A stretch of 63,564 nucleotides of DNA, counting the filler, from Coriobacteriales bacterium (GTDB lineage Bacteria > Actinomycetota > Coriobacteriia > Coriobacteriales > UBA8131): assembly GCA_031263105.1 (NCBI GenBank). It is 6 parts of 6 records of this genome, joined end to end, with 100 filler letters (N's around TTAATTAATTAA, not from the genome) between each part and the next. Parts side by side here need not be neighbours in the genome. Positions count along the whole stretch, not along the records: positions 10,902 to 36,778 come from JAISGJ010000029.1; 5 more parts are not named here. One strand, 5' to 3'. Made by a program: the position numbers and the translations under genes. The notes under the pieces are model-generated. The model saw only the letters and a program-made list of their open reading frames with translations. It was not told the DNA's origin and did no database searches. Shown here piece by piece: positions 18,857 through 37,039 of this stretch (its first letter is position 1; each line of letters starts with the position of its first letter).

Positions 18857-19923
18857 TACCCAAGATCGACACCCAGTATCCTACGGATGGCGCACACGCC
18901 AAGAAGCTCCATCCCCGAGGCGACGGCCAGGATGGCAAGGCCCTGTGTGGAGGAGAAGAAGCTCTGGAGATAACCCTCCATCGCCATCGAGAGCACGGCG
19001 ACCAGCACCAAGGGCAGGATGATGACGATCCTTGCGGAAAGACGGGCCTGGGCGGTCTGCACGCCGAGCTGCCTGCGCAGGTCGGCCGATGCGAGCACCG
19101 CATCGGCGGCATTCTCCAAAAGCTCCTGGAGGCCGCCGCCGGTACGATGCTGGATCTCGAGCGAGACGAGGGCGAAGCGCAAATCCGCCGTCTTCGCCCG
19201 CGCCTCAAGGGCAGACAGCGCCTCCTCGATGCCCTTGCCTGCCCGGATGTCGAAGCAGACCTGCGTCAGCTCGGATCCCAACGGGTCGGAGGTGTCCTCG
19301 GCCACCTGCTCGAACGCCTGTTGCAGGGAGTAACCCGCATTGAAGCAGATGCCGAGCGAGCGCAGGGCATCCGGTATCTGCCCCACCAGCCGGCCCTCCC
19401 ACTGGTCGAGCACCTTCTGTGCCCTCCCGAACAGCAGGACGGCCGCCAGCACCGCAGCGCAGAGCGCCGTGACAGGCATCCCCGTGAGCACGAGCACTGC
19501 CAAGGCCAACAGGGAAAGGGCCACAAGAAGCGACTCGCAGACCGCCAGGTCGGCGATGTCGCCCGTGGCACGGGGACGGCCGGCGCCAAGGTCGAAGGCC
19601 GCATCGCCTGGGGCACCGTGGCCCTCAAGGCCCTTGACCTCCAAGGCCCTGCGACAGACATGGCACTTCTCATGGAGCCAGCGGACGCGCAACAGCAGGC
19701 GGGCAAGCGGCCTGAGCGCAGGAACGCCCCGCCGGGCCGGGCCGAAAGGAAAGGCGGCCCCGCGAGCGGCACGGGCATCCTTGCCGTCGATGAGCCGCGT
19801 CTGGAGGCGCGAGCGACGGAGTCCTTGGACGCCCTGCCCGAGGACGACAGGCAGGGCAAACGCCCCACAGAGGGCAGCGGCGACAAGGGAGACGGTCAGG
19901 ACAACAGCAGGGACGAACGCCAC
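18856..19923 (-). CDS. tadB: TadB (T2SS F-family) platform protein
   Basis: QIPDALR, IQHRTGGGL, TAQARLSA; GTG start inferred. Confidence 0.88.
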   Translation of the reverse strand: MAFVPAVVLTVSLVAAALCGAFALPVVLGQGVQGLRRSRLQTRLIDGKDARAARGAAFPFGPARRGVPALRPLARLLLRVRWLHEKCHVCRRALEVKGLEGHGAPGDAAFDLGAGRPRATGDIADLAVCESLLVALSLLALAVLVLTGMPVTALCAAVLAAVLLFGRAQKVLDQWEGRLVGQIPDALRSLGICFNAGYSLQQAFEQVAEDTSDPLGSELTQVCFDIRAGKGIEEALSALEARAKTADLRFALVSLEIQHRTGGGLQELLENAADAVLASADLRRQLGVQTAQARLSARIVIILPLVLVAVLSMAMEGYLQSFFSSTQGLAILAVASGMELLGVCAIRRILGVDLG

Positions 19924-22686: not shown

Positions 22687-23362
22687 CGAGGGCACCCCCT
22701 GGCAGCACAAGGTACAGATCCCTCGTGCGCGAAGCCGCTATCAGCTCCTGCGCAGTATCCGTCTCGACCGCCAAGGTCACCCAGGAGAGCCTTCCACGGG
22801 TGCCCGAGGCACCGAAGAGCCCCGAGTCGGCGCCGGATGCGGCCTGGGAGCCGTTGCTGGTCTCCAGGACAAGCACCTCCTCGGCTATCATCTCGACAAT
22901 CGAGGCATCGGCCGCATAGACCGTCACGAAGGTCCCTGCCTGGATCGCCCCACCGACCGCCAGCACGTCCTCGGAGGGAATGCTCACCGCACAGAGGCCC
23001 TCGGGCACATTCACGGGCCCACCCGTCTCCCCGAGCTTCGCGGCGACTATCGGCTCGTTCTTCATGAGGGGCACCACCGTCCGTTGCCCGAGCACCTCGC
23101 CCTGCTCGTGGAGTGCGCCCACAGGGAGCAGGTCGGCCAGCCAAAGCTGTAAAGAGACGTTCTCGCTCGAAAGCTCCTCCCCTACGGCGATGTCGCGCGT
23201 GGCGGTATAGACCTCGATCTGATCCCCTCCATAGGACGAGAGGGCCTGTTGCCGCGTCTGGGTCGCCTCAGCCCGCACCTCCGCCGCATACCAGGCCATG
23301 GAGGCTGCCGCGATGGCCCCGCAGGCAAGTGCGAGTATGAGCCGCTTCTTCGCCTTGATCAC
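22679..23362 (-). CDS. cpaB: CpaB/RcpC pilus assembly protein
   Basis: TM, SAF domain (ATRDIAVGE), AVGGAIQAG..V; GTG start. Confidence 0.85.
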   Translation of the reverse strand: MIKAKKRLILALACGAIAAASMAWYAAEVRAEATQTRQQALSSYGGDQIEVYTATRDIAVGEELSSENVSLQLWLADLLPVGALHEQGEVLGQRTVVPLMKNEPIVAAKLGETGGPVNVPEGLCAVSIPSEDVLAVGGAIQAGTFVTVYAADASIVEMIAEEVLVLETSNGSQAASGADSGLFGASGTRGRLSWVTLAVETDTAQELIAASRTRDLYLVLPGGALDE

Positions 23363-23703
23363 CGCTCGACCTTCCTGTCCTGTGCAAAAGGGGGTATCTG
23401 GACGTTCCAGAAGTATGCGCCCCTGTCCTGTGACCGAGGCTGAACCGCAGCGGAACGGAAGATGCCCGGACGATGACCCGGAACCGAACGGCCGCTGAAC
23501 GGGCGTGGAAGCCCCAGCCCACGGCCTCGCGTCAGCGATAATCCAAGAGGAACCTGTTGGGGAGAAGGGAGCGCCCGCCTCGGGCCGGCCCAAGAATCGA
23601 AGGGGCGAACGGCATATCGAGGGCACCGAACGGCATCCTCGCCCGCCCCTCGCCCGCGTATCGGGTATGGTGATGCAATGCAGGAATACGGAAGGGCAGC
23701 CCT

Positions 23704-24355: not shown

Positions 24356-25744
24356 TCAACCCGTCCGCGGCGGGCGGATAAGGAAGGCCGCGACGACGGC
24401 TGCCACCGCGAACGCCGCCAACAGGAGGAAGCCGTAGCGGTATGAGCCGCCCATGGTCTCGATGAGGCCTATGAGCGGCGGCCCGACGAGGGCGGCCGGG
24501 ACGAAGTCCATATAGGCGACGGCGAGGTTGCTCGCATAGTTCCTCTGCCCGTAAAACCGGTTCGTCACGGCCGCAAGCACCGTCGATATGGAGCCGAAGC
24601 CCAGGCCGACGAACATGTACCCGCAGAACACGAGGGGCACCGCCCGCATGCCGGTCGCCACGAACAGCAGCAGCGAGGCCACCACATACGCCACCGAGAT
24701 GCCGATAAGGCTCAAGCGGTAGCCGAAGCGGTCGAAGAACAGGCCCGAGCCCAGACGCCCCACGCCGTCGAACAGCGAGATGAAGCCCACCATGAAGGTC
24801 GCCAGATGCATGGCCGCGCCCACCTCGAGCGCTATCTGCTTGGCGTTTCCCATGACGGAAAGATAGGTCGCTGCGACCATGATCGACCAGAAGAACGTGA
24901 GGTAGAACACCTTTGTGCGCAGCATCTGGCGCGTCGTGTAGTCGCGTTCCTCGACCTCCTCGCCGCCCCAGGCCCCGCCGCCCCAGGCCTCGCCAGGGCC
25001 GTCCTTGTGCGCACGGAAGGGCAGGAAGGGCAGCCGGCGATGCACGCGGCGCAGCCCCACGGAGGACGCAGAGGGCGGTCGGGAAGGCTCCGCAGGAGAC
25101 GTGCGGGGCCGCCGGCCCGCCGCAGAGGCAGGCGGCGGCAGCGGCTGCCCTGGGGCAGGGATGCGCACAAAGAACGAGGCGGCGACCATCACGAGCGCCG
25201 TCGCCGCACCGATCGCGCGGAACGACCAGCGCCAGCCGAGTGCGCTTATCCCCATGCCTGCCACCATGCCTATGACGAGGCTCCCCAGCCCGAAGCCGAG
25301 GGTCAGAAGGCCGGACGAGGTCCCCACCTTGTCGGGGAACCAGCGGTTCACGCTGCTTAGGAACGCGTTGTGGGCCATGCCCGTGCTGCCTCCGACGGAC
25401 GCCCCGTAGGCGGCCGTCAAAACACCGAGCCCCTCGGCGGTCACCGAGGCGGAGACAAGGTAGCCGCCTGTCAGCAGGAACGCCGCAATGAGAACCGTCA
25501 CCTGCGGAGAGATGCGGCGCGTTATCTGGCTGCCGACAAGCCCGCCGACGCAGAACATCGCCATCGAGGTCGTCCACACCACCGCGAGCTGGGCGCTCGT
25601 CCATGCGAACTCCTCCTGGAGCGGCACTGCAAGGATCGACCACCCGTAGATGAAGCCCAGCAGCAACAGAGAGAAGGCGCCGATGGCAAGGTACAGCCAC
25701 CGGCGCCTCAATGCAGCGGAATACTCGAGCACGCGCTCGACCAC
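24356..25744 (-). CDS. MFS transporter, OFA-like family
   Basis: GFIYGWSI, WFPDKVG, 12 TM helices. Confidence 0.88.
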   Translation of the reverse strand: MVERVLEYSAALRRRWLYLAIGAFSLLLLGFIYGWSILAVPLQEEFAWTSAQLAVVWTTSMAMFCVGGLVGSQITRRISPQVTVLIAAFLLTGGYLVSASVTAEGLGVLTAAYGASVGGSTGMAHNAFLSSVNRWFPDKVGTSSGLLTLGFGLGSLVIGMVAGMGISALGWRWSFRAIGAATALVMVAASFFVRIPAPGQPLPPPASAAGRRPRTSPAEPSRPPSASSVGLRRVHRRLPFLPFRAHKDGPGEAWGGGAWGGEEVEERDYTTRQMLRTKVFYLTFFWSIMVAATYLSVMGNAKQIALEVGAAMHLATFMVGFISLFDGVGRLGSGLFFDRFGYRLSLIGISVAYVVASLLLFVATGMRAVPLVFCGYMFVGLGFGSISTVLAAVTNRFYGQRNYASNLAVAYMDFVPAALVGPPLIGLIETMGGSYRYGFLLLAAFAVAAVVAAFLIRPPRTG

Positions 25745-25751
25745 AGGGGCC

Positions 25752-26402
25752 CTACCTCCTCAGCGCCTTGACCTTGTCTCCCGGCACGCCCTCGGAATCG
25801 ATGTCGGCCTGCAGGGCCTCGATGACGGGCAGGACGCTTCGCAGGTCCTCAAGAACCTCCTGGTAGAAGCGCTTGCCGTCCTCCCATGTATAGACATACG
25901 GCTTGTACTGCTCGATGATGCGGTAGAAGCTCGCATTGTTGAGGAAGCGGCGCTCCTTGTACAGGTCGTCCAGATCCTTGCCGACCTCGCGCAGGTAGAC
26001 GGCGAACAGCTGCGGCAGCTTGTCGGGGTCGATATAGGTGTCGATGAACTCGGACACGACCGTCTCGTCGGCGAACTCCGCACGGAAGCGCTCGAGCATG
26101 TCCGCGAGCTTCGGCGGGGCCTGCGGGGCCTCTTGGGGATGCCCTGCATACATATAACCCTTCAGTATCAGGTCGACGCCGTGGGTGACCATGTACATCA
26201 AAGGAACCGTGGCGATAAAATCGCTCGTGCCGTACTCCAACTCCTCCGCCTGCTGCAGGTAGTCGCCGTAGACGCCCTGGCGCATGTAGGAGTCGATATT
26301 GCCGTCCTCGGCACCCATCTCGGCCAGCTTCTCTGCCAGCTGCAAAGCCTCACGCGCGGACATCCATGACGACTTGGCGTGAATATAACGATACGTTTCC
26401 AT
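25752..26402 (-). CDS. Hypothetical helical protein, weak HEPN-like motif
   Basis: C-terminal 216 aa of the listed ORF, from METYRY; PLMYMVTHGVDLILKG. Confidence 0.65.
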   Translation of the reverse strand: METYRYIHAKSSWMSAREALQLAEKLAEMGAEDGNIDSYMRQGVYGDYLQQAEELEYGTSDFIATVPLMYMVTHGVDLILKGYMYAGHPQEAPQAPPKLADMLERFRAEFADETVVSEFIDTYIDPDKLPQLFAVYLREVGKDLDDLYKERRFLNNASFYRIIEQYKPYVYTWEDGKRFYQEVLEDLRSVLPVIEALQADIDSEGVPGDKVKALRR

Positions 26403-26416
26403 AAGCTGCTTCCGTC

Positions 26417-27703
26417 CTACGAGAGCTCGTCTTGTATCTTCGCAAGGTCTGTGCGGTATGCCTTGCCGAACAGGAGGGCGAAGAGCAGCGCCACGACCGC
26501 CAGCACCGCAAGCAGCCCATAGACGGTCACGTCGCCCGCGTCCGCCGTGGTGGTGATCGAGCCGAACAGCGCCACGATGACGATGTTCAGGAGGGCCGCA
26601 GAGGCGATGTTGAGGTTGGCGATGCCCAGGTTCTTCGCGAAGCCGACCGCCCCGTACCGTTGCCGCGCATACGCCGAGGCCATGACCGGCACGCCCGAGT
26701 AGGGGAAGGCGACCAGGATGCCCGCGACCACATAGACGGGCCACAGCAAGGTCGAGAACGCCAAGGCAAGCCCTCCCATCGTCACGATGGCGAGAACGGC
26801 ACCGACGACCATGACGGGGACGAGGCCGAAGCGGTCGAAGAGCGCACCGTTGATGACGCGCCCCACGCCGTTGAGCGTGGAGACAAGCCCGACGAGCAGG
26901 AAGGAGAGGCCCGGGTCGAAGCCGGTCGCCACGGCACCCTGCTTCGCGGTGCCGATAAGGGTGAGGCCGCAGGCGATGACGATGGTCGCCCAGACGCAGT
27001 ACAGCCAGAACACCTTGGTCGTGAGGATGCCCTGCTGCTGGGTCGCAGACGCCTTGGGGGCGCCTGATGCGGCAGACGACGCCGCGCCGGTCAGTATCTG
27101 GTCGATGTTTGCGGGGGCAGGCTTGACGACGAGCGCCAGCGCAACCATGACAGCCATGCCGACGACGGCGATGAGGACGAACACCGCCTGCCACGGTATG
27201 ATGCCGAACAGGAACTCAGCCAATGAGCCGAAGATCAGGCTCGCGAGCCCGAAGCCCATCATCTGCACGCCGGAGGCGAAGCCTATCCTGTCGGGCCACC
27301 ACGGGTTGACCAGCGAGATGATGGCATTGTAGGCGATGCCGCAGCCCGAGCCCGCAAGGATGCTGTAGAACACGAACAGCGTCCACACGCCCCAGCCCGC
27401 GCCGACGGCGGTGAGCACGAAGCCGGCCCCCAGCAGAACGGCCGCGACGATGATGGCCAGTTTGGCGGAGGTCCTCTTTATGAGCTGGGCGCCGAACAGC
27501 GCCGAGACGCAGAACGCGAACATCGAAACCTGGAAGACCTGCTGAAAAAGCCCCTGGTACGCAGGGAAGTCAGTGCCGAGCGGGCTTGCGAAGATGGACC
27601 ACGCATAGATAAGCCCCAGCACCAAGAGGGTAAGGGTGGCAAACACCAGGTAGAGCATTCGCCTTGACTTGACGGTGGCAAGGGAGAGTTCTGTCGTACT
27701 CAT
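26417..27703 (-). CDS. MFS transporter, OFA-like family
   Basis: GLIYAWSIF, WWPDRIG, 12 TM helices. Confidence 0.9.
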   Translation of the reverse strand: MSTTELSLATVKSRRMLYLVFATLTLLVLGLIYAWSIFASPLGTDFPAYQGLFQQVFQVSMFAFCVSALFGAQLIKRTSAKLAIIVAAVLLGAGFVLTAVGAGWGVWTLFVFYSILAGSGCGIAYNAIISLVNPWWPDRIGFASGVQMMGFGLASLIFGSLAEFLFGIIPWQAVFVLIAVVGMAVMVALALVVKPAPANIDQILTGAASSAASGAPKASATQQQGILTTKVFWLYCVWATIVIACGLTLIGTAKQGAVATGFDPGLSFLLVGLVSTLNGVGRVINGALFDRFGLVPVMVVGAVLAIVTMGGLALAFSTLLWPVYVVAGILVAFPYSGVPVMASAYARQRYGAVGFAKNLGIANLNIASAALLNIVIVALFGSITTTADAGDVTVYGLLAVLAVVALLFALLFGKAYRTDLAKIQDELS

Positions 27704-27772
27704 GCATTGGCTCCTAACTGACCGGTCGCTACGTCCTGAGACACCCTACACGAAATTCAAAGCTGCCTGCCA

Positions 27773-27813
27773 AAGCTGCCCGGAGGGGCACCCTCGATGC
27801 CCCTCCGGGCAGC
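27773..27813 (-). terminator. GC-rich hairpin followed by TTT
   Basis: GCTGCCCGGAGGGGCA/TGCCCCTCCGGGCAGC 16-bp stem. Confidence 0.65.
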
Positions 27814-27817
27814 CTGG

Positions 27818-28000
27818 TCACCGTGTCCCCGGTGTGACCCTCTTGGCCTCCGTGTGCACGATGACCGCACCGCACTTCTTGCAGACCTTCGCGCTGGGGC
27901 TGTTGAAGGTCTTGCATTCCTCGCAGTAGCCTCGCGGCACGATCTTCGTCTCGAAGCCGCCTTGGCACCTCCCGCAGCCGGAACACCCGTACCCGCACAC
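27818..28000 (-). CDS. 60-aa Cys-rich double Zn-ribbon-like miniprotein
   Basis: [11 protein letters not shown] plus CEEC..CKKC; AAGGAGG RBS before GTG. Confidence 0.72.
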
Positions 28001-28188
28001 GATACCCCTCCTTCACAGGGCCTTCACAACCCAAGAAAGGGCCCACGCAACAACGGAAACTGTCACATGGGCCCGTTCCCTTCTCAAGATGCCGCGACAC
28101 GATGGGGGTGCCTCTGCCGAACATGGCATACGCCGACACGAATCCCTCGCGGCCAGCTACTCGACGTACAAGAGCAGACGCAGGTCTT

Positions 28189-28533
28189 TCAGACGCCAGG
28201 GGCGCCAGGCGGCCTGGGGGCGCCGGGGGCACCCGGGGCACCGGGGGGCCTGGGGGCGCCGGGGGGCCTGGGGGCACCGGGGGCGCCGGGAGGCCCGGGC
28301 GGCCTGGGGGCGCCGGGAGGGCCGGGCACGCCGGGGGGCTTGGGCATCCCCGGAGGGCCGGCGGCACCGGGTGCGCCGCCTCCCCCATAGCCCATCTCTT
28401 CTGCATACTTGGCAAGATCAGCCTTGCAGAAGGGACACTTCTTCATGACGACGCCGCCGATGGCCTGGAGCTTCTTTCCGCACTCAGGGCAAATCGGGTC
28501 GGGCAAATCGACACCTGCTGGCCTGAAACACAT
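28189..28533 (-). CDS. Zn-ribbon miniprotein with Pro/Gly repeat tail
   Basis: MCFRP, CPEC..CPFC, then PPG/APG repeats. Confidence 0.75.
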
Positions 28534-28609
28534 ACTCGGTCTCGCTTTCTGTTCGTCCGTCTTTCACTGGTCTTTTGAGCTCGGCCTCTATCCTCGTTTG
28601 GGACAGCAC

Positions 28610-28873
28610 CTATTCTATCTTAGTCCCTCCGATGATGCCAGCATCGTCGGCCTTCTCGTTCCCGGAAAGACGGGTGGTCTGATACCCGCGCATCGGCTTT
28701 ATCATAAAGCTCTTTCTCGGCGGCACATAGAAGATACCGACCTTGCCAAGACCAGCCTTGTCGGTTCCGAGCTCCGCATAGACGTCATCGGGGGACTTTC
28801 CGGCGGCCAACTGGTCGTTGAGCCACTTCCCCTGCTCCTCAGTCGCAAGCTCGATGAACTCGTTTAAAGTCAT
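28610..28873 (-). CDS. Hypothetical 87-aa protein
   Basis: GGAGG RBS; co-oriented downstream of the Fe-S subunit. Confidence 0.65.
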   Translation of the reverse strand: MTLNEFIELATEEQGKWLNDQLAAGKSPDDVYAELGTDKAGLGKVGIFYVPPRKSFMIKPMRGYQTTRLSGNEKADDAGIIGGTKIE

Positions 28874-29058
28874 TGCAAACCTCCCTGAGTCTCATGTATA
28901 TTCCCTGTTGACTATATAGTAACAGAAAATACCAAGTTTCAGAGATCGTTTCAGACTGCCTGTCTGCCTCCAATCTTTCTCGTCATGTGCCACTACCTAA
29001 GGCCTTCATGTCTCGGGGCAAGCCCAAAGAACACAGTCTGAAACAATCTCTCGTTATG

Positions 29059-29412
29059 CTACGGCTTGAAGATGCTGACCTTGTGACCGATCTCGGCAGC
29101 ACGCTTGGCAAGCTCGTCTATGGGGCCGTACTCGATGCACTTTGCCAGGCAGTGATGCACGCAGGTCGGCTGCTTGCCAACGTCAAGGCGCTTCGCGCAC
29201 AAGTCGCATTGGGCAGTCGGCACGGGGATGTACTTCCAGTCCCACGCGTCCGAGTTGCCCTCTTCGAGCTGATAGGGGCCAAGCTCCAGCACGACGATGC
29301 CGGGCTTCTTGGCGATATCGGTCCCGAGGTAGTTCTTGCATGCCACTTCGCACGTATGGCAATTGGAGCAGTACTTATAGTCGAACAGAAGAGCGTAGTC
29401 TTCGTATGCCAT
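29059..29412 (-). CDS. 4Fe-4S ferredoxin-type subunit of the molybdoenzyme
   Basis: CSNCHTCEVAC, CDLC, PTCVHHC. Confidence 0.9.
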   Translation of the reverse strand: MAYEDYALLFDYKYCSNCHTCEVACKNYLGTDIAKKPGIVVLELGPYQLEEGNSDAWDWKYIPVPTAQCDLCAKRLDVGKQPTCVHHCLAKCIEYGPIDELAKRAAEIGHKVSIFKP

Positions 29413-29443
29413 TGTTCCAACCTCCTTTTCTGGTGTTCAGACG

Positions 29444-31858
29444 TCAGTCCAAGTTCCTGTGCCAGGCATGGAGCTCGACGAGGTTGTTGAGGTCAACGCC
29501 CTCCTCCTTGACGAGCTCGTCCTGGTCCTTGACGATATCGTAGGACTTCTTGACCACAAGGTCGTCAAGGTTATCGACCTTCTTGATGGAGCAGAAGACG
29601 CTCTTGAACGGAGCGCCGAAGCCAAGGCGGCCGATATCGAAGTGCGGCACCAGGTTGTTGACGTTGGACTTCCAGACACCGAAGAGGTTGGGCTCCTCGC
29701 CGTCCTGCTCGGGATACCACCAGCCGTGACGGGTATGGACCACGCGGGGGTCGATGGTGATGACGAGGCTTGCCTTCTGGCGGGCGCGCCCGAAGGGGTT
29801 CTCGACCTCTACCCAGTCGCCTTCCTTGATGCCGTACTTGGCAGCGGTGTCGGGATGGATCTCGATGTCCGGATACTCGCGGAAGTGACGCAGGGTCGGA
29901 TACATACGGTGCTCGGAATGGAAGGTGTTGTACTCGCGGCTGCCGGAGGTCATCATGAACGGATACTTGTCGGCAAGCTCCGGGTGGCTGATGGGGCTCC
30001 AGCGCGGCTCCTCGTAGTAAGGCATGGGATCCTCGCCCCAGGCCTCGAACAGGGTCGAGTACAGCTCGACAAGGCCGGTGACGGTGTTGAAGCCCTGCTC
30101 GCCGTCGAAGCGCAGCATGCCCTTCTCGTACTTGCGATAGTCATATCCGGGCTGATACAGACCGATGTGGCGCAGCTCGTCGAAATCGAAGCCGAGCTGG
30201 TCGACCGTCTGTTTGCTGAAGAAGTCCGGCACGAACTTGTCGCGCGTGTCGCCCTCGAAGATGTCCCACGTCGAGGTGCCGTCAGGGCCGGCGTTGTTGA
30301 GGCGCTTGCCGAACTCGATGCAGATCTCGACGTCCGACTTCGTCTCGCCGACGCGCAGCGCCTCGTTCATCGCGCCCAGGAAGACCGTGTTGCGGCCATA
30401 GTGGGTGATGACGATGCCGTCGTGCTCGGCGACGGTGGGCAGCGGCAGGAAGACGTCGGCGCAGGCCATGGCCGTCGGGGTCATGGTGAGGTCCTGCACG
30501 ACGTTGAAGTCCGTCTTGATCAGCGCGTCGTGCCAACGGATGGGCGCGGCCGAGCAGGTCGGTGCCAACAGGTTGGACGAGTTGAACCAGACCATGTGGA
30601 TCTGGTAGGGCTTGCCTGTCTCAAGGACGTCGAGCGTGTAGTCCGGGTGGGTGGTCGCCATCGCGTTGGACAGCGCGGGATACTCGCCGGAGCCGAGACG
30701 CTTGTCCCAGAGGCCCGGGGTGACCTCGAGGTCCTTGCGGGTCTCCATGCGCCACTTGCCCAGAAGGGCCGACGGGGGACCGAGGGTCAGGCCGCCGGGG
30801 ATGTCGAGGTTGCCGGTGATGGCCTGCAGGGCGATGGTGATGTGGCCGACCTGCGTGCCGTTCGGGTTCTGGTCGACGGCGAGGCCCCAGGCAATGGAGA
30901 CGGGCTTGAGCGCCATCAGGCGGGCGACCTTGCGAATCTGCTCGGCGGGTGCCCAGGTGTACTCCTCGACCAGCTCGGGCGTGTAGAGCTTGGCGCGCTC
31001 TGCGAACTCCTCGAAGCCGAAGCACCACTTCTCGACGAACTCGTGGTCGTAGAGGTCCTCCTCGATGATGACGTTCGCGAGGCCGAGGCCGATGGCCGCG
31101 TCGGAGCCGGGCTTGATCTGGAGGTTGATGTTGCCCTCCATGGCGCCCAGCCAGGTGATGCGCGGGTCTATCATGATGATTCTCGTCCCAAGCTTCATCA
31201 TGTCGATGAGGGCATGGCCGAACAGGCCGTCACCATTGGACGACAGCGGCATCTTGCCCCAACAGACCACGTACTTGGGAAGCTCGAACTCAGGATTGTC
31301 ATAGCGGTCCTCGAAGTAGCCGGCGAAGTCGATCTCGGGATACCCGGCGCCGAGGATGTAGTCGGTGATGGAGCAGCGGGGGCCGTAGCAGGACCACCCG
31401 GACTGGGCGTAGCAGACGTTGGGGGTCTGCAGGGTCGAGAAGCCCAGCGGGTAGTAATAGATGCAGGCCTCACGGCCGGTGCCGCCGAAGACGAGGATGG
31501 ACTCCGCTCCGTACTCCTCCTTGAAGTAGTTGACCTTGCCGCACACCAGGTCGAAGGTCTCGTCCCAGGAGATGCGCTCCCATTTGTCCTTGCCGCGGTC
31601 CTCGCGGGCGCGCTTCATCGGATAGACGATACGCTTGTCGGAATGCACGATCTCCGGCAGGTCAAGGGCGCGTATGCACAGACGGCCGTTGGTGATCGGA
31701 TGCTCCGGATCGCCCTCGACGTCTATGAGCTTGCCGTCCTTGACGGTCAGCAACAGGCCGCATCCCACCGGATGGTCGCCGGGGGGCGACCAGCAGCTGG
31801 AGCGAACGGTCACCGACCCGTCCGGATTCTCACGCTTCCACTCTTTACTCATTGCCAT
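29444..31858 (-). CDS. Bis-MGD (DMSO reductase family) oxidoreductase, acetylene hydratase/catechol dehydroxylase-like clade
   Basis: CWSPPGDHPVGC..GRLC, RIVYPMKR, SCYGPR, FHSEHR, IHPDTA, HGWWYPE; no Tat signal. Confidence 0.9.
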   Translation of the reverse strand: MAMSKEWKRENPDGSVTVRSSCWSPPGDHPVGCGLLLTVKDGKLIDVEGDPEHPITNGRLCIRALDLPEIVHSDKRIVYPMKRAREDRGKDKWERISWDETFDLVCGKVNYFKEEYGAESILVFGGTGREACIYYYPLGFSTLQTPNVCYAQSGWSCYGPRCSITDYILGAGYPEIDFAGYFEDRYDNPEFELPKYVVCWGKMPLSSNGDGLFGHALIDMMKLGTRIIMIDPRITWLGAMEGNINLQIKPGSDAAIGLGLANVIIEEDLYDHEFVEKWCFGFEEFAERAKLYTPELVEEYTWAPAEQIRKVARLMALKPVSIAWGLAVDQNPNGTQVGHITIALQAITGNLDIPGGLTLGPPSALLGKWRMETRKDLEVTPGLWDKRLGSGEYPALSNAMATTHPDYTLDVLETGKPYQIHMVWFNSSNLLAPTCSAAPIRWHDALIKTDFNVVQDLTMTPTAMACADVFLPLPTVAEHDGIVITHYGRNTVFLGAMNEALRVGETKSDVEICIEFGKRLNNAGPDGTSTWDIFEGDTRDKFVPDFFSKQTVDQLGFDFDELRHIGLYQPGYDYRKYEKGMLRFDGEQGFNTVTGLVELYSTLFEAWGEDPMPYYEEPRWSPISHPELADKYPFMMTSGSREYNTFHSEHRMYPTLRHFREYPDIEIHPDTAAKYGIKEGDWVEVENPFGRARQKASLVITIDPRVVHTRHGWWYPEQDGEEPNLFGVWKSNVNNLVPHFDIGRLGFGAPFKSVFCSIKKVDNLDDLVVKKSYDIVKDQDELVKEEGVDLNNLVELHAWHRNLD

Positions 31859-31982
31859 AACATGAACCTCCTTAAGATCTGCTTTGGCTCTGACACACAT
31901 GCATACTCACGTTCGACCGGCGGGCCCGTCGGCACTCGGTCGGCGGGCCCGCCGATGCAAAACCTACTCCTACTTCCTACTC

Positions 31983-32195
31983 CTACTTCTTACCGCCCTT
32001 GGCAATCTCCATGCCAGCAAAGATGAAGAAATGGATGAAGGGCAGCACCAGGGCCAGGATCATCAGGGGCAGCCTGACGGCCACATAGCCAGGGTTACCC
32101 GCGAAGGCGATCGGGCAGAAGATGCAGACGATCAACATGTAGGCCAAGATCACCATCATGCTCCAGAACGCCACACTGTTCTCTTGCTTTTCCAT
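31983..32195 (-). CDS. Small 2-TM membrane protein
   Basis: Two hydrophobic segments; lies between MFS and molybdoenzyme. Confidence 0.65.
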   Translation of the reverse strand: MEKQENSVAFWSMMVILAYMLIVCIFCPIAFAGNPGYVAVRLPLMILALVLPFIHFFIFAGMEIAKGGKK

Positions 32196-32273
32196 ACGTA
32201 GCTCCATTCCGCCGCGTCACAGCGGCACAATCAGTGAGGGAAAATAGCGCGCTACTGCTCTCGCACTGCTCCC

Positions 32274-33818
32274 CTACGCCTCCACGGTCTCGGCAACGAG
32301 CGTGTCGAGGTCCTTGCCGCTGGTCTCGCGACGGACGAAGACGATGGTGCAGAGCAGGCCGATTGCAGCGGGAGCCAGCAACAGGAGCATGATGTTGTTC
32401 CAGTTCCCTGCGAAGATGGGCGTGATGGCACTGAAGACGATGGGCGCTGCGGCACCGCCGAAGCGCGCGAACGCCTGGCACCACGACACGCCCGTGTTCC
32501 TGACGAGCGTCGGATAGCTCTCGGGCATCAGCGGCTGGACGCCGGTGATCGCGAAGTTCATCGCGAAGCCGATCAGGAAGAACAGGAACATGCAGTAGGC
32601 GAAGGCGCCCGGGCCGACCGTCAGCGCGAAGATCACGACGGCAACCATCAGGAATATCCAGGAGAAGATAAGGGTCCGCTTCCTCCCGAACCGGTCGGAC
32701 AGGAAGCCGACGGTGACGTTCGAGCAGATGGCGGCGACGTTGTTGAACGTCTGCATGGCCGACGCCTGCTGGGGCGTGTACTCGAAGCCCGTCATCATCG
32801 GGACCATCCACGGGTTGAGGCCGTAGACGAATACCTGGCCGATGAAGTACATGGTCCAGATCGCCGCAGTCGCCACGATGAAGTTCCTCGTGAACAGCAC
32901 CTTGGGGCTTGCGCTCTTGAGCTTCGGCGGGACGACGAGGTTGGCGACCTCGAGCTTGCCGATGCTCACCTTGCTCTGACGCCCGGCGAGGTCGTTGAGG
33001 CGCGCGACGGCCTTGTCGGCGAAGCCGGCGTTCGCATACCAATGCGGGGTCTCCTTCATGAAGAGGCCGAGCAGGACCCCGTACAGGACGGGGATGACGC
33101 CGATCAGATAGGCAACACGCCAGTTCTGGGTCTGTCCCTCCAGGACCGAGCCGTCAGCGCCCGTGAGCGAATAGATCTCCCCTGCGCCCGCAGGTGCGAA
33201 CGGGATGACGATGGGGTCATGGATACCGTTGAGGAACGTGATGACGAGGCCGGCGATGACCCAGCCGAAGACCATGAAGGCCATACCGAAGGTGACGAAG
33301 ACGCCACGGTTCTTCGAGGGGATGGTCTCCGAGAAACAGGTCGTCACCACAGGGATGCACGAGCCCACACCAAGACCGGCGATGAACCGGGTGGCCGCGT
33401 AGAACGCGAAGTCCGTGGCATAGGCCTGGGGAAGCGTGAAGGCGCCATAGAAGATAATGGCGATCACGAGCATCTTCTTGCGGCCGATCTTGTCGGAGAC
33501 GATGCCGCCGATGGCACCGCCGATGACCATGCCGAGAAGGCCCCAGGACGATATCGAGCTGCCCAGGGCCTGCAATTGGGCCCTGCCGTCCGCAATGGCG
33601 ACGATCGACGTGTCGGTCGGATTGCCGCCTATGGCAACAAAGTGCTGCAGCGTGTTGGCCACGTTCGCGGTCGTCTGGCTCGCGACCATGAAGTCGTAAC
33701 CGTCGAAGATCATCGCCAGCCCAAGAAAGGCGAACATGGCCCAGGTGAACTTGCTGATGCCCAGGCTGTCGATGACATCGGATACCGAAAACTTCTTCCC
33801 TTCAAAAAGTCCTGACAT
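32274..33818 (-). CDS. MFS transporter, aromatic acid:H+ symporter-like
   Basis: IFDGYD, SDKIGRK, SDRFGRK, PESYPT..RNTG. Confidence 0.88.
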   Translation of the reverse strand: MSGLFEGKKFSVSDVIDSLGISKFTWAMFAFLGLAMIFDGYDFMVASQTTANVANTLQHFVAIGGNPTDTSIVAIADGRAQLQALGSSISSWGLLGMVIGGAIGGIVSDKIGRKKMLVIAIIFYGAFTLPQAYATDFAFYAATRFIAGLGVGSCIPVVTTCFSETIPSKNRGVFVTFGMAFMVFGWVIAGLVITFLNGIHDPIVIPFAPAGAGEIYSLTGADGSVLEGQTQNWRVAYLIGVIPVLYGVLLGLFMKETPHWYANAGFADKAVARLNDLAGRQSKVSIGKLEVANLVVPPKLKSASPKVLFTRNFIVATAAIWTMYFIGQVFVYGLNPWMVPMMTGFEYTPQQASAMQTFNNVAAICSNVTVGFLSDRFGRKRTLIFSWIFLMVAVVIFALTVGPGAFAYCMFLFFLIGFAMNFAITGVQPLMPESYPTLVRNTGVSWCQAFARFGGAAAPIVFSAITPIFAGNWNNIMLLLLAPAAIGLLCTIVFVRRETSGKDLDTLVAETVEA

Positions 33819-34057
33819 TATCCCTCCTTCAAAAAGAGTGCCTGCACGTACGCTCCGCATTGAAAGGCCCCACCTGGACAGGTCGTTCCTGTGCGCTCGG
33901 GTTGCAGCCGGACCTCCTACTTGCCCAAGCAGACGTCTGAAAACACGGAGTAGAGCGGGGGGTTCACCTCCTCCAAGGAACTCGATGTTGCGTTGTAAGA
34001 AAATTGATTTGCCTGTCCGATTCTAGAGGGGATGCGTGCAGGAATCCAGCGACATAT

Positions 34058-34171
34058 TCATACGCTGGAATTGATTTGGGCATATCCGCCATCATACGCT
34101 ACGGTATAAATCGTTCCCTGGCAGGCAGAGCGGGGCCTTGCCCGTATCGAAATATCATACGCAGTATATGA
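34058..34171. promoter_or_regulatory. Three TCATACGC boxes in the divergent MFS/LuxR intergenic region
   Basis: Copies at 34058, 34092 and 34155. Confidence 0.5.
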
Positions 34172-34526
34172 CTGTGCTCCCTTGCCCGGCGATGGAAGCC
34201 ATTGTATAGTGGGAGGCGTTCCGAGGGTTGCAGTTGTTACAAGGTTCTCCTAGAGGAAGCTCGGTGCGCAGGAGTGCGCGGGCCTGTGTGGGTCAGCCTG
34301 TCCGCAGCGCTGGTTTCGCATGGACTTGTCTTCAGGATGGGAGGAGGTGGTAGCGCCCACAGAGCGAGTCATCGAACCTACATCGAAGGGGGCCGTCTGA
34401 CGGGGACTGCCCCCTTTATGCTCTATGAGCAGTTGCTCTGAGTGGTTGCTGGCGGCGGGCGGTGTGGGGCATTATACGTGTTCAGTGTTCAGACGCATTG
34501 CGATTCCCGAAGGGCAACTTGGCCAC

Positions 34527-36215
34527 ATGCTCAAGGACTTCAGAGAAAACCGCGTTTTCAGGAAACTCTTCCTCGACAACGACCGGCTCATCGACCCGAG
34601 CATGGTGCTCGGCTTCGGCTTCCACCTTGCGTGGGGCTACATGGTCGTCTATATGGCCTTCCCCTCGTTCGTCTTCGACGGCCAACCGATCGAGACGCTC
34701 TTTCGGAACCTGAACAGCATCACCTGGGTGGTCTCGATCGTCGTCATGCTGTTCATGGCATGGACCCTCAACCAGATCACCTATACCATCCGCAGACAGA
34801 ACCTGCAGATAAGCATCGCCTGCATGATGTCCATCGGCACCATCTTCCTGTTCGTCGCCGAGTATGTTCCCTTTATCCCCCTCATCGTCGCAGGCAACGT
34901 CCTCGCAGGAGCTTCCTCCGCATTCCTCTTCCTCATCTGGGGAGAGGCGTTCAGGCGCCAGGAGACCCCTTCCATCGCGGCGAACACGATACTGAGCTGC
35001 ATCGTCGCATTGCTCAGTTATGGGATAATGGCGGTCCTTCCCACGGACGTGACCAGCGCCGTCCTCTGCATCATGCCCCTGTTCGTCGTCACGGGCCTGT
35101 TCTTCGTCCTGCACGGCGGCAACGCGTTCTTCGGCAAGCAGGAGTTCCTCATCAACGACGAGGGGCAGCGCATGCCCATCTTCGGCATACGGGAGGTTCC
35201 CACCTTCCGCAAGCTCAGGGTGCACAGAGGCAAGCTGATGATCCGCCTCGCCATCCCGAGCTTCCTGTTCGGTGTGGCCTTTGGGCCCTTGACCCTTCAG
35301 ACCTTCACCTTGATACGGGAGCAGGCCGCATCGTCGACGAACCTGATGGTCACGATAGCAGGCGCCTGCGCGGTCGCGGTCGCCCTCGTCATCACCTTGC
35401 TGATCATCAACCGCGACGAGGACTACATGCGGTTCTACCGCTTCATCATCCCGGTTTTGGCCATCACGGTCTTCTTCATCAACTTCCTGGAAGACGGCCT
35501 CACGCTCAACCTGTTCACCTTCGTGACCTTCATCTGCTTCTCGTTCATGATGTGGGTGGAGTTCAGCGAGCTTTCGCGGCGCTACCGCATATCCCCCATC
35601 CTGATATTCGGTTTTGGGAGGGCGGCGGCAGTGACCGCGCAGTTCATCAGCATCGTCGTGCTGGAGACCCTCCATATCGACCAGTTCTTCTCCGCCAACG
35701 GGAACGTCCTGAGCACCCTTCTCATCCTGGCGATGCTCCTGGGCTACTTCTTCCTGCCCCGCGACAAGGCCATCCGGGAGATGGCCATCATGGACTACCT
35801 CGACCCCGCAAAGGCGAACGCGGAGGACTCGGGCCCGAAGGAGGCAGGCAAGGGGCGCTTCATCGTCCGCTGCGAGCACGTCGCGAACACCTACCTGCTC
35901 TCAAGCCGCGAGGCCGACGTGCTCTACCTGCTGGCCAAGGGGCGCAACGCGGCCTATATCGCCCAGAAGCTCTTCATCTCCGAGGGAACCGTCCATACGC
36001 ATACCTGGCGCATCTACCGCAAGATGAACGTGCATGCGCAGCAGGAGCTCATGGACCTTGTGGACAGTTACTTCGTCCACGACGACGGGCGGGTGGAGAA
36101 GTCGCCGAAGCGCCTGGACGCGCAACGGCCTTCCGGGCCTTCCGGGCCTTCCGGGCCGTCCGCTCCGTCCGAGGCGGAGCCGCAGACGGAGCGCAAGGCC
36201 AAGAAACGGGGGTAG
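34527..36215 (+). CDS. Transmembrane (about 12 TM) LuxR-family one-component regulator
   Basis: MFS-like hydrophobic N-domain plus LSSREADVL..GRN..IAQKLFISEGTVHTH..IYRK. Confidence 0.92.
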   Translation: MLKDFRENRVFRKLFLDNDRLIDPSMVLGFGFHLAWGYMVVYMAFPSFVFDGQPIETLFRNLNSITWVVSIVVMLFMAWTLNQITYTIRRQNLQISIACMMSIGTIFLFVAEYVPFIPLIVAGNVLAGASSAFLFLIWGEAFRRQETPSIAANTILSCIVALLSYGIMAVLPTDVTSAVLCIMPLFVVTGLFFVLHGGNAFFGKQEFLINDEGQRMPIFGIREVPTFRKLRVHRGKLMIRLAIPSFLFGVAFGPLTLQTFTLIREQAASSTNLMVTIAGACAVAVALVITLLIINRDEDYMRFYRFIIPVLAITVFFINFLEDGLTLNLFTFVTFICFSFMMWVEFSELSRRYRISPILIFGFGRAAAVTAQFISIVVLETLHIDQFFSANGNVLSTLLILAMLLGYFFLPRDKAIREMAIMDYLDPAKANAEDSGPKEAGKGRFIVRCEHVANTYLLSSREADVLYLLAKGRNAAYIAQKLFISEGTVHTHTWRIYRKMNVHAQQELMDLVDSYFVHDDGRVEKSPKRLDAQRPSGPSGPSGPSAPSEAEPQTERKAKKRG

Positions 36216-36774: not shown

Positions 36775-37039
36775 GCATNNNNNNNNNNNNNNNNNNNNNN
36801 NNNNNNNNNNNNNNNNNNNNNNTTAATTAATTAANNNNNNNNNNNNNNNNNNNNNNNNNNNNNNNNNNNNNNNNNNNNTTGCCCGGATACCGCCACACAC
36901 ACCCGCACAACCCCCCCCCCTGCTGGGCGGGCGCCGCGCCGCGCCGGCCCGGGTAACCCCCCCCCCTGTACCGGCCCCGTTCCCCCCCCCCCCCCCCCCC
37001 CCCCCAGCCAGCCATCAACCCTTCGGTTGCGCTCAGGGC

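Follow-up and report, generated by a model that had tools for sequence, protein, structure and literature searches.

Gene content and organization of the locus

The analyzed window, a stretch of 63,564 nucleotides joined from six parts with filler between them, originates from an uncultured Coriobacteriia draft genome. The module described here spans positions 24356–36215, lies whole on one contig (window positions 10902–36778) and comprises a LuxR-type regulator gene divergent from a co-oriented run of minus-strand genes, with Tad-pilus genes at its downstream edge (Table 1). A first-pass annotation had described this gene run with its MFS transporters and small Fe-S subunit, as well as the membrane-spanning LuxR protein encoded divergently, and every gene was recovered at or near the position given there. 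Since the Mo-FeS gene pair is present in 70 of the 73 related loci and the wider gene order was seen again in the closest relatives as well as in loci of the hydrocaffeate dehydroxylase Gp Hcdh (Hcdh loci), this gene order is not due to chance.

Table 1. Features of the module and the evidence for their annotation (window positions).
Feature	Position	Strand	Evidence
LuxR-type membrane regulator	34425..36215	+	PF00196 GerE; 10 hydrophobic segments
Divergent intergenic region	33861..34424	.	three GCGTATGA copies
Aromatic-acid:H+ symporter-type MFS	32274..33860	-	PF07690, PF00083, TIGR00895
74-aa 2-TM protein	31983..32207	-	two hydrophobic segments
bis-MGD catalytic subunit (alpha, 804 aa)	29444..31858	-	PF00384, PF01568, PF04879
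Small Fe-S subunit (beta, 117 aa)	29059..29412	-	weak Fer4; DmsB C-terminal match
mini87 (87 aa)	28610..28873	-	synteny; matches no known family
Zinc-ribbon miniprotein (114 aa)	28189..28533	-	sub-threshold zinc-ribbon matches
Terminator-like hairpin	28039..28074	-	consensus scan only
Cys-rich miniprotein (60 aa)	27818..28000	-	Zn_ribbon_3 below cut-off
OFA-type MFS transporter 1	26417..27703	-	PF07690; SfMCT, TIGR00890 below cut-offs
Orphan protein, ~216 aa	25752..26402	-	homologues at same place in closest relatives
OFA-type MFS transporter 2	24356..25744	-	PF07690; SfMCT below cut-off

The terminator-like hairpin, deduced from a consensus scan only, consists of 16 pairs followed by a T-rich tail and may split the minus-strand run into two transcription units. 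Among the small proteins, the 114-aa miniprotein possesses a Pro/Gly/Ala-rich tail, and its homologues adjoin Mo genes in two Hcdh loci (L074, L075) and in locus L044. The 60-aa miniprotein features an 11-residue stretch followed by a CxxC...CxxC zinc ribbon (Zn_ribbon_3, E 3e-5) and is kept in 14 loci, Raoultibacter loci of the L044 type among them. The orphan protein matched no Pfam family; its homologues at the same position in the closest relatives are 31–48% identical. Genes for a membrane anchor, a quinol-oxidising subunit or an electron donor were not found at the window locus.

Regulator and transporters

The 596-aa ORF of the LuxR regulator encodes 10–12 N-terminal transmembrane segments, at least 10 of which appeared as hydrophobic segments in a crude hydropathy scan, and a C-terminal GerE helix-turn-helix (HTH) domain (E 3.4e-16, residues 492–545). 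Translation probably begins at the ATG around position 34527, past a hairpin at 34386–34416. The best matches in R. massiliensis and Ellagibacter (29–32% identity) are LuxR genes that likewise adjoin related Mo enzymes. Read on the operon strand, the three GCGTATGA copies of the divergent intergenic region sit at positions -302, -239 and -205 relative to the start of the MFS gene. These repeats, absent from the equivalent region of all 11 related loci that were checked, represent a candidate operator.

The first gene of the run encodes an MFS transporter resembling aromatic acid:H+ symporters (TIGR00895, 192.8 bits, cut-off 418), with matches to MhpT (128.6 bits) and PcaK (121.6 bits) that are also under their cut-offs. 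It is the presumed substrate importer. In nine related loci a 2-TM gene follows the MFS gene, and in Ellagibacter (L017) the 2-TM protein is fused in frame to the MFS C-terminus; it thus appears to be an accessory module of the aromatic-acid MFS. Furthermore, two OFA-type MFS transporters are encoded. The first reached 182.4 bits against SfMCT and 105.1 bits against TIGR00890, and a 39%-identical homologue is located beside the R. massiliensis Hcdh locus; the second features a long central loop and reached 199.5 bits against SfMCT.

Catalytic and Fe-S subunits

All three Pfam domains of alpha scored over their cut-offs. The protein begins with MAMSKEWKRENPDG, a terminus devoid of a twin-arginine signal and of any hydrophobic segment. 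Because sequence inspection and a hydropathy scan revealed no Tat signal in alpha and no transmembrane segments in alpha, beta or mini87, the enzyme is predicted to be cytoplasmic. The AF2 model of alpha has a pLDDT of 83.6. Acetylene hydratase was the best PDB match of alpha both by sequence (E 1.6e-63) and by fold (E 9.2e-53, TM 0.79/0.87), which bears out the first-pass classification as a Tat-less, acetylene-hydratase-related, catechol-dehydroxylase-like bis-MGD enzyme. In the NCBIfam search every match was far under its cut-off, and alpha does not side with the canonical enzymes for DMSO, nitrate or formate, also in line with that annotation.

Two motifs highlighted in the first-pass annotation are present in the sequence. 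The SCYGPR segment holds Cys157, which aligns with the cysteine of the acetylene hydratase segment MYMCIG and is the Mo ligand. The N-terminal Fe-S motif, C22-WSPPG-D28-HPVG-C33...C61, had been called atypical; the motif is real, but C..D..C..C is the most frequent state in the clade of the window enzyme. C22, D28, C33 and C61 are the probable ligands of the FS0 cluster; the FS0 loop is modelled with low confidence (mean pLDDT 61 over residues 21–30). The last ~40 residues of alpha likewise form a low-confidence C-terminal tail.

For beta, weak Fer4 matches and a match to the DmsB C-terminal domain (E 4e-13) were obtained. Eight cysteines (C15, C18, C21, C25, C69, C72, C84 and C88) are kept in at least 90% of 26 homologues and would be enough for two [4Fe-4S] clusters, suggesting that beta is a small electron-transfer subunit.

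The 87-aa protein mini87

In the mini87 protein, a helical domain resembling an HTH occupies the N-terminal part and a conserved segment (..FYV..KPMRGYQTT..SGNE) the C-terminal part, and no family was matched in Pfam or the PDB. Homologues are rare: in 1.84 billion proteins they make up just 58 representative clusters. The gene immediately follows beta in 23 of the 73 related loci, and the alpha proteins of these 23 all share at least 58% identity with the window alpha; a full-length copy at this place was found in no more distant locus. Considering only loci with alpha at least 58% identical and downstream sequence present, 23 of 26 possess it, the Hcdh lineage included.

The N-terminal 45 residues resemble the repeated sigma-70 region-4/GerE-type HTH units of multi-repeat proteins, and therefore mini87 could be a small HTH-type transcription factor, or else an unrelated passenger gene, instead of an enzyme subunit. 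The 185-bp gap between the beta and mini87 genes and the publication of Gp Hcdh as a two-subunit enzyme are compatible with such a role, which is nevertheless considered rather doubtful in view of the strict linkage to one enzyme clade, the fusion of the N-domain to the Fe-S subunit in three loci (L020, L021, L025) and the modelled complex with alpha. The latter scored 0.77 (three runs, 0.75–0.81; best control 0.00), the runs having at least 66% of contacts in common and a partner pLDDT of at least 76; the score mark applied is reached by 116 of 157 solved complexes and by 2 of 215 mismatched pairs. In the model, the conserved C-terminal segment sits on alpha. Hence, mini87 is predicted to bind the catalytic subunit and is a candidate third subunit or assembly/maturation factor.

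Phylogenetic placement and substrate

Alpha is a member of the clade of cytoplasmic catechol dehydroxylases published as 'Gordonibacter-type'. In the trees, computed without Dodh, Cldh and Eadh sequences, the window enzyme and the Gp Hcdh group were placed in a starred Coriobacteriia clade, with the Gs Vadh orthologue (picked by exact matches to both published RT-qPCR primers) outside. The nearest characterised relative is Gp Hcdh (58–59% identity), represented by an Ellagibacter protein (59% over 774 residues) that a published supplement assigned to the Gp Hcdh cluster.

This proximity would be compatible with a functional Gp Hcdh orthologue converting hydrocaffeic acid (3,4-dihydroxyphenylpropionate) to 3-(3-hydroxyphenyl)propionate, as would the identical gene order, miniproteins too, the nearly identical Mo-ligand segment SGWSCYGPRCSI, the MhpT-like similarity of the MFS and the pairing of the same enzyme, in three of the closest relatives, with an MFS 63–69% identical to that of Hcdh loci. 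Such a function is nonetheless judged unlikely. The identity is lower than the published cut-off for isofunctional clusters (72%), so that the substrate of Gp Hcdh is not transferable to the window enzyme. Moreover, R. massiliensis carries two paralogues, a true Hcdh (89% identical to the Ellagibacter protein) and an enzyme sharing 63% identity with the window alpha; therefore, lineages of ~60% identity coexist and probably differ in substrate. Because of these two findings and a sensor domain only ~29% identical to the Hcdh-locus regulators, the window enzyme is read as not isofunctional with Hcdh. In the tree, its group also branches on its own at a five-way polytomy, and it has retained Fe-S ligands that the Hcdh group lost.

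A further alternative is that the enzyme is no dehydroxylase but a different bis-MGD enzyme of the acetylene hydratase clade that transforms aromatic acids, e.g., as a hydratase, as a hydroxylase acting oxidatively or as a reductase of a non-catechol group. The clade is mostly uncharacterised outside gut Coriobacteriia (PMC7028382), orthologues of 60–66% identity in Desulfitobacterium, Sporomusa, Peptococcaceae and Geobacter have other regulators, and non-catechol chemistry of some superfamily relatives, e.g., corticoid dehydroxylation, was named in a review. However, the characterised Gordonibacter-type members in the cited literature are all catechol or phenol dehydroxylases, a dedicated Fe-S partner favours redox chemistry over hydration, and the gene order is that of a proven dehydroxylase locus, which makes this alternative very improbable.

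Proposed function

Gene content, homologies, the common gene order and clade membership are established for this module. Based on these results, it likely encodes a cytoplasmic catechol (phenolic-acid) dehydroxylase of the Gordonibacter type that is induced by its substrate, probably an imported plant-derived phenolic acid. The membrane LuxR protein would detect the phenolic substrate and switch on the divergent operon, and uptake would proceed through the aromatic-acid MFS, assisted by the 2-TM protein. Electrons would pass from the two [4Fe-4S] clusters of beta to FS0 of alpha, held by three cysteines and probably Asp28, and further to the Mo-bis-MGD centre ligated by Cys157, which would strip one ring hydroxyl as water. 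mini87 probably docks on alpha near the substrate funnel, and the OFA-type transporters may serve either product efflux or the uptake of a carboxylate as electron donor. The first-pass annotation also linked the module to anaerobic respiration, a role that would be drawn only by analogy with Gp Hcdh; any tie to energy conservation is likewise putative.

Comparison with known systems

Gordonibacter-type enzymes, being cytoplasmic and two-subunit with MFS and LuxR genes nearby, were reported in 2020 (PMC7028382) and 2025 (PMC12771579; PMC11887054); they are Tat-less and substrate-induced (PMC7028382, PMC12771579), and the phenolic-acid dehydroxylases group together in the published tree (PMC11887054). 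The window module, proposed in the first-pass annotation as a new kind, is accordingly of a published type. Its architecture is not new, because the Hcdh loci of G. faecis and R. massiliensis share the gene order, miniproteins included: LuxR and a divergent MFS-2TM-(Zn ribbon)-Mo-FeS-mini87 run. That annotation had further regarded a close orthologue with the same synteny as evidence against novelty; the synteny is shared with Gp Hcdh, the orthology is not close.

The hydrocaffeic acid dehydroxylase of Gordonibacter pamelaeae, Gp Hcdh ('Unk-9'; PMC11585353), was compared along with its loci in G. faecis, R. massiliensis and E. isourolithinifaciens. Shared features are a Tat-less alpha of ~770–800 aa, a second subunit of small size and, as third gene, one of the 87-aa type; identities amount to 58–59% for alpha, 34–39% for beta, 31–40% for mini87, 51–52% for the MFS and ~29% for the LuxR sensor. 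In contrast, the window alpha keeps C/D/C/C at the FS0 positions, where the Hcdh group has T/S/Y/N, and its beta keeps all eight conserved cysteines, seven of which are missing in the Hcdh group. The window alpha also has the additional C-terminal tail (~40 aa), and extra genes of the locus encode the 60-aa Cys-rich protein, another OFA transporter and the orphan. Beyond the cited literature go the finding that C..D..C..C is the commonest clade state, the loss of nearly all Fe-S ligands in the Hcdh lineage with their retention in the window enzyme, and the linkage of mini87 to the beta gene with its predicted binding to the catalytic subunit.

Dodh, Cldh, Gs Vadh and Eadh1-3 (PMC7028382, PMC11887054, PMC12771579) share the cytoplasmic two-subunit architecture, adjoining MFS transporters, substrate-responsive regulators and acetylene hydratase kinship, but are more distant than Gp Hcdh; the Gs Vadh orthologue is 49% identical to the window alpha and lacks mini87. 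The Eggerthella-type enzymes (Dadh, El Hcdh, Cadh) share superfamily, reaction class and LuxR-type membrane regulators. According to the cited papers, they are Tat-exported and ~1,190 aa long, with a four-cluster beta and a membrane anchor, none of which occurs at the window locus.

Orthologues from Bacillota and Desulfuromonadota (Desulfitobacterium hafniense, Sporomusa acidovorans, Peptococcaceae, Geobacter; 60–66% identity) form a sister clade in the trees, share C..D..C..C and keep the Mo-FeS-aromatic-acid-MFS core, with mini87 in two Peptococcaceae loci, but have a sigma-54 enhancer-binding protein as regulator instead of LuxR; Firmicutes relatives with this core and a sigma-54 activator are 63–65% identical. 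Acetylene hydratase is a stand-alone non-redox tungsten hydratase. The enzyme of Pelobacter acetylenicus (PDB 2e7z) is 26% identical to alpha (fold rmsd 3.1 A) and has a Cys metal ligand at the equivalent position; unlike it, the window alpha is accompanied by an Fe-S partner of its own, by transporters and by a sensor.

Organization of the Locus

The module is located entirely within one contig of the draft genome (window 10902-36778) and consists of the genes listed in the table below. All genes named in the first-pass annotation of this region were recovered, as a co-oriented run divergent from the LuxR gene. No Pfam-type match, or only a sub-threshold one, was obtained for the orphan, the 2-TM protein and the 60-aa protein encoded in the run. 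A terminator-like hairpin follows the first six genes and may split these from the remainder of the run.

Genes and sequence features of the module (window positions)
Feature	Position	Strand	Remarks
LuxR-type regulator	34425-36215	plus	divergent; GerE HTH and at least 10 hydrophobic segments
Aromatic-acid-type MFS	32274-33860	minus
2-TM protein	31983-32207	minus	74 aa
bis-MGD enzyme (alpha)	29444-31858	minus	804 aa, counted from MAMSKEW
Fe-S protein (beta)	29059-29412	minus	117 aa
Miniprotein (mini87)	28610-28873	minus	87 aa
Miniprotein	28189-28533	minus
Terminator-like hairpin	28039-28074		after the first six genes
Miniprotein	27818-28000	minus
OFA-type MFS	26417-27703	minus
Orphan	25752-26402	minus	between the two OFA genes
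OFA-type MFS	24356-25744	minus

Directly downstream of the module, a Tad/Flp-type pilus set was observed (window 18856-23626), comprising an RcpC/CpaB-like protein, a ParA-type ATPase, a T2SSE ATPase and a T2SSF membrane protein. Paired N runs join at least six contigs in the window (10802-10901, 36779-36878, 49035-49134, 53483-53582 and 58278-58377), and gene neighbourhood is not readable across these junctions.

Relationship of the Catalytic Subunit to Acetylene Hydratase

The bis-MGD enzyme, referred to as alpha, scored above the cut-offs of PF00384 (80.1 bits) and PF01568 (69.7 bits). Its AlphaFold2 model (pLDDT 83.6, pTM 0.87) matched 181 PDB chains at E <= 0.001 in a fold search, which places it in the DMSO reductase (bis-MGD) superfamily. 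Acetylene hydratase was the top match among PDB entries, both by sequence (E 1.6e-63; second match 8e-41) and by fold (E 9.2e-53, TM 0.79/0.87; second match 4.6e-40). Furthermore, Cys157 of the segment SCYGPR, invariant among 52 homologues, shares its alignment position with the Cys in the MYMCIG segment of acetylene hydratase, the metal ligand of that enzyme. Acetylene hydratase is a stand-alone enzyme without an electron-transfer partner. It (2e7z) shares only 26% identity with the window enzyme and, in contrast to acetylene hydratase, the window lineage features an adjoining gene for the Fe-S protein beta, which is present at 70 of the 73 related loci.

Canonical DMSO, nitrate, formate, thiosulfate and arsenate enzymes were rejected, as their NCBIfam scores were all far below the cut-offs; no NCBIfam model of a named reductase came near its cut-off for alpha. 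Pyrogallol transhydroxylase was likewise rejected, with a PDB sequence match of only E 9.5e-13. A selenocysteine enzyme was also dismissed: no in-frame stop interrupts the ORF, and 'anaerobic selenocysteine-containing dehydrogenase', as JGI labels it, is a generic name.

Regarding its architecture, alpha contains neither a twin-arginine signal nor a hydrophobic segment, based on direct reading of the N-terminus and on hydropathy, and thus is Tat-less as originally described. With this property and its length it corresponds to the Gordonibacter-type catechol dehydroxylases, i.e., cytoplasmic two-subunit enzymes of about 750-800 aa. The beta gene begins 31 bp downstream of alpha and encodes eight conserved Cys; the sole small membrane protein nearby goes with the MFS, leaving a small Fe-S partner and no anchor. 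Moreover, three MFS genes and the divergent membrane LuxR gene provide the neighbouring transporter and the putative substrate-responsive regulator typical of this class. The original identification as a catechol-dehydroxylase-like bis-MGD enzyme is upheld by the kinship with acetylene hydratase, the grouping with the cluster of hydrocaffeate dehydroxylase (Hcdh) and the exclusion of canonical enzymes. Based on sequence comparison, alpha is a predicted catechol dehydroxylase and an uncharacterised member of the known Gordonibacter-type class. A C-terminal tail of about 40 residues (approximately 765-804; window 29444-29570) is present in alpha of the window group and absent from relatives of 745-770 aa; it was modelled as low-confidence helices (pLDDT < 50).

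Relatives and Phylogenetic Placement

A search of 5.8 billion proteins, with 7,997 candidates scored, yielded 2,348 relatives at E <= 1e-20. The closest of these, showing 84-94% identity, originate from uncultured Coriobacteriales. Proteins of Desulfitobacterium hafniense, Sporomusa, Peptococcaceae, Moorellaceae and Geobacter, and also Eggerthellaceae proteins without the PF04879 domain, followed at 60-66% identity. Within the window genome itself (86% complete, 6.5% contaminated), 24 matches at E <= 1e-20 were detected, the next best paralogue being 49% identical. One record titled Gracilibacteraceae bacterium MAG and labelled Bacillota (locus L007) harbours the whole cluster, with 86% identity to the window enzyme, amid otherwise Coriobacteriales records, suggesting either mis-binning or a recent transfer.

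In the FastTree phylogeny of 188 sequences, two MAG proteins of Gordonibacter/Raoultibacter joined the window group in a starred clade. In the IQ-TREE 'quick' phylogeny of 49 sequences, this clade was one branch of a five-way split within a starred 22-row Coriobacteriia clade, next to the Hcdh group, the group of the Raoultibacter paralogue and two more. The sister clade consists of Bacillota/Desulfuromonadota proteins. The Gs Vadh orthologue, recognised after a genus-wide search by exact matches to both published primers, is 49% identical to the window enzyme and is placed outside the Coriobacteriia clade; only chance matches with three mismatches to the Gs Vadh primer were found in G. faecis, R. 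massiliensis and Ellagibacter, and none in the loci compared. No decarboxylase was present in the Ellagibacter locus L024 when it was sought as the ellagic-acid (eam) cluster, and hence no Eadh is labelled in the trees. The present trees, obtained by FastTree and a quick IQ-TREE search only, cover Hcdh-cluster members and the Gs Vadh orthologue, without acetylene hydratase, the Tat-exported Eggerthella-type enzymes (including Dadh and Cadh), Dodh, Cldh and Eadh1-3, and within this scope alpha groups with members of the characterised Gordonibacter-type Hcdh cluster.

Predicted Iron-Sulfur Ligands in Both Subunits

Alpha matched PF04879 with 41.6 bits (cut-off 22.7), whereas a review describes the Gordonibacter catalytic subunits as devoid of an Fe-S motif (PMC11574389). 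The predicted N-terminal cluster site (FS0) comprises only three Cys (22, 33, 61), with Asp28 at the position where paralogues carry Cys; the motif C22..D28..C33..C61, as well as SCYGPR, was present as first reported. It departs from the canonical form in spacing and, often, by the replacement of one Cys by Asp. To place this motif in context, the four FS0 positions were surveyed in 188 aligned sequences, 25 of which had a missing or truncated N-terminus, so that 163 were scored. C-D-C-C occurred in 92 of the 163 rows, followed by C-C-C-C (25), x-C-C-C (11) and C-E-C-C (2), and ligands were lost in the rows showing x-S-Y-N (23, Hcdh group), C-E-W-N (7), C-D-H-D (2) and C-E-W-G (1). The motif regarded as atypical is therefore real and represents the commonest state of the clade, not a peculiarity of the window gene. 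In beta, each of eight Cys positions is conserved in 90% or more of the 26 homologues compared, a number that would suffice for two [4Fe-4S] clusters.

A different situation was found at the Hcdh loci of Ellagibacter (L017:8004-10693), G. faecis (L074:8814-11500) and R. massiliensis (L075:8469-11154), where alpha has T/S/Y/N at the four FS0 ligand positions; in the small subunit of the Hcdh group, seven of the eight conserved beta Cys are replaced. Because these ligands are missing from the orthologues, the published Hcdh of Gordonibacter pamelaeae (Gp Hcdh) probably carries no canonical Fe-S cluster. A term search confined to the main text of the paper on Hcdh (PMC11585353) returned neither 'iron' nor 'Fe-S'; the second subunit is referred to there as 'accessory subunit'. 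The Raoultibacter paralogue has kept the beta Cys and lost three of the four FS0 ligands of alpha. One clade provides a natural series that starts with the full predicted Fe-S wire of the window enzyme, continues with the Raoultibacter paralogue, in which the loss is confined to alpha, and ends with Hcdh, in which both subunits are affected; this series bears on how a soluble cytoplasmic reductase obtains electrons and supports ATP formation.

A Conserved 87-aa Protein Predicted to Contact the Catalytic Subunit

Full-length mini87, the 87-aa miniprotein, is encoded directly 3' of beta in 23 of 73 loci, in all of which alpha is at least 58% identical to that of the window. Among the 26 loci featuring alpha at this identity and available downstream sequence, mini87 is missing from three (L009, L010, L062), and no full-length copy was found directly downstream of beta in any more distant locus of the 73. 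It was also present in both fetched Hcdh loci (G. faecis and R. massiliensis). Pfam (best E 0.014-0.056), the PDB profiles (best E 0.022) and the ESM Atlas gave no usable match, and a profile of mini87 run against 1.84 billion proteins retrieved no more than 58 representative clusters at E <= 0.001. The first 45 residues resemble sigma-70 region-4-type HTH units. Moreover, Fe-S subunits of about 236 aa with a C-terminal mini87 N-domain are encoded at L020:10409-11119 (E 7.5e-8), L021:7496-8206 (E 1.4e-3) and L025:2871-3578 (E 1.7e-4).

A complex of alpha (residues 1-770), beta and mini87 was modelled. Mini87 obtained a score of 0.77 (three runs, 0.75-0.81), compared to 0.00 for the best of three controls, with at least 66% of contacts agreeing between runs and a partner pLDDT of at least 76. 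Of 157 solved complexes, 116 attained the applied score mark, as did two of 215 mismatched pairs; these counts hold only roughly here, since the modelling relied on custom alignments and on three chains. Residues 39-79 of mini87 were modelled in contact with alpha residues 166, 170, 281, 361-378, 384, 390-401, 553-554 and 583-606, positions 166 and 170 being located just past the Mo-ligand segment. The model supports, and does not show, binding of mini87 to alpha. When loci with and without mini87 were compared, the alpha segments at the interface proved to be conserved throughout the superclade. Covariation between alpha and mini87 was rejected as an additional argument: the only difference seen, at alpha position 371, is too little to count. 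All 10 rows with mini87 have Met there, and Val or Ile is found in L009, in L010 and in three proteins of unassigned context.

Tentatively, and with the balance leaning somewhat against it, these results may be read jointly. Some enzymes of the clade, including Gp Hcdh as a characterised and highly expressed gut enzyme, would be three-protein enzymes, in which an unrecognised family of about 70-95 aa docks a conserved C-terminal segment on the catalytic subunit beside the substrate funnel and thereby shapes specificity or assembly. The window enzyme would possess a complete Fe-S wire with an Asp-ligated FS0, and the gut Hcdh lineage would have dropped nearly all Fe-S ligands of both subunits, implying a different route of electron delivery.

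Transporter, Regulator and Promoter Region

The MFS encoded first in the run falls into the aromatic-acid:H+ symporter type, with similarity to MhpT and PcaK, every score being below the cut-off. The 2-TM gene always follows the MFS gene and, in Ellagibacter (L017:1266-2987), its homologue forms an in-frame C-terminal fusion with the aromatic-acid MFS; the 2-TM protein is therefore assigned to the transporter and not to a reductase anchor. Homologues of the 114-aa zinc-ribbon miniprotein were found in the Hcdh loci and in L044, and the 60-aa Cys-rich protein recurs in 14 loci.

The Coriobacteriia membrane LuxR class features 10-12 N-terminal TM helices, a C-terminal LuxR/GerE HTH and a position divergent from the regulated reductase genes (PMC11585353). 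The window LuxR belongs to this class, with GerE at residues 492-545, at least 10 hydrophobic segments and a spacer of 565 bp to the divergent genes. In R. massiliensis, each of the two clade members is adjoined by its own membrane LuxR. Within the divergent promoter region of the window (34058-34171), the octamer TCATACGC (GCGTATGA on the operon strand) occurs in three copies in 115 bp and may represent the operator of the cognate LuxR. Since GCGTATGA was absent from the corresponding region of the 11 related loci checked, the triple repeat is regarded as a lead only. In the orthologous loci of Peptococcaceae and Sporomusa (L008:5222-7462, L010:4841-6997), a sigma-54 enhancer-binding protein encoded upstream of the Mo-FeS-MFS genes, with a PAS domain in Sporomusa, replaces the membrane LuxR. 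These Bacillota orthologues have kept the core of Mo enzyme, Fe-S protein and aromatic-acid MFS under a PAS-containing sigma-54 activator.

According to a PNAS 2025 paper (PMC12771579), catechol dehydroxylase genes are often adjoined by MFS and LuxR genes, and colocalised MFS are thought to import the substrates of cytoplasmic enzymes. For the window enzyme, the gene context points to an imported aromatic carboxylic acid as the predicted substrate. Phenolic-acid dehydroxylases neighbour one another in the tree of a JACS 2025 paper (PMC11887054). Three of the closest relatives (alpha 86-87% identical) carry a different MFS, which is 63-69% identical to that of the Hcdh loci.

Comparison with Hydrocaffeate Dehydroxylase Loci

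A protein of Ellagibacter isourolithinifaciens is listed in SSN cluster 9, the cluster of Gp Hcdh (PMC11585353 supplement). The L017 translation starts with the same residues as this protein, and the published Gp hcdh primer also fits its start. The Hcdh of G. faecis shows 91% identity to this protein and that of R. massiliensis 89%. The loci of these two species and the window share a common gene order, namely a divergent LuxR gene and genes for MFS, 2-TM protein, zinc-ribbon miniprotein, Mo enzyme, second subunit and an 87-aa-type protein; an OFA-type MFS is encoded near the R. massiliensis Hcdh locus as well. Identities to the window amount to 58% for alpha, 51% for the MFS, 38-39% for beta, 37-39% for the 2-TM protein, 31-38% for mini87, 43-44% for the LuxR HTH and about 29% for the LuxR sensor part.

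Given this shared gene order, hydrocaffeate itself was considered as the substrate. However, the window enzyme is only 58-59% identical to Hcdh (59% over 774 residues for the Ellagibacter protein), well below the cut-off applied by the authors of the Hcdh study for isofunctional clusters (at least 72% identity / alignment score 300; PMC11585353), and its group branches as a lineage separate from the Hcdh group in the tree. Moreover, R. massiliensis encodes a true Hcdh and, about 44 kb apart, a paralogue nearer to the window enzyme (G001:C9:1617268-1619520 and G001:C9:1661344-1663653), the paralogue being 57% identical to Hcdh and 63% to the window enzyme. Hydrocaffeate is thus considered a rather unlikely substrate.

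What becomes of plant polyphenols, and of some drugs, in anoxic guts depends on catechol dehydroxylases, and for 121 of 126 clusters of the family the substrate is unassigned according to the authors (PMC11585353). The locus adds an uncharacterised lineage of uncultured Coriobacteriia, kin of the hydrocaffeate enzyme, and would be a sensible choice for substrate screens with acids derived from lignin and polyphenols. Additional value arises from the way the C/D motif is distributed, from the Fe-S ligand loss of a characterised gut enzyme, and from the conserved small third protein, whose predicted binding to the catalytic subunit is a testable point on published enzymes. The claim that the module is of a new kind was not sustained, as its architecture has already been published: G. 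pamelaeae enzymes were described in an eLife 2020 paper as lacking a Tat signal and being smaller than Eggerthella enzymes, with homologues in Desulfitobacterium, Geobacter and other bacteria (PMC7028382), and the JACS 2025 paper applies the name 'Gordonibacter-type' (PMC11887054). The locus is a new, uncharacterised member of the Gordonibacter-type class and has its gene order in common with the Gp Hcdh locus.
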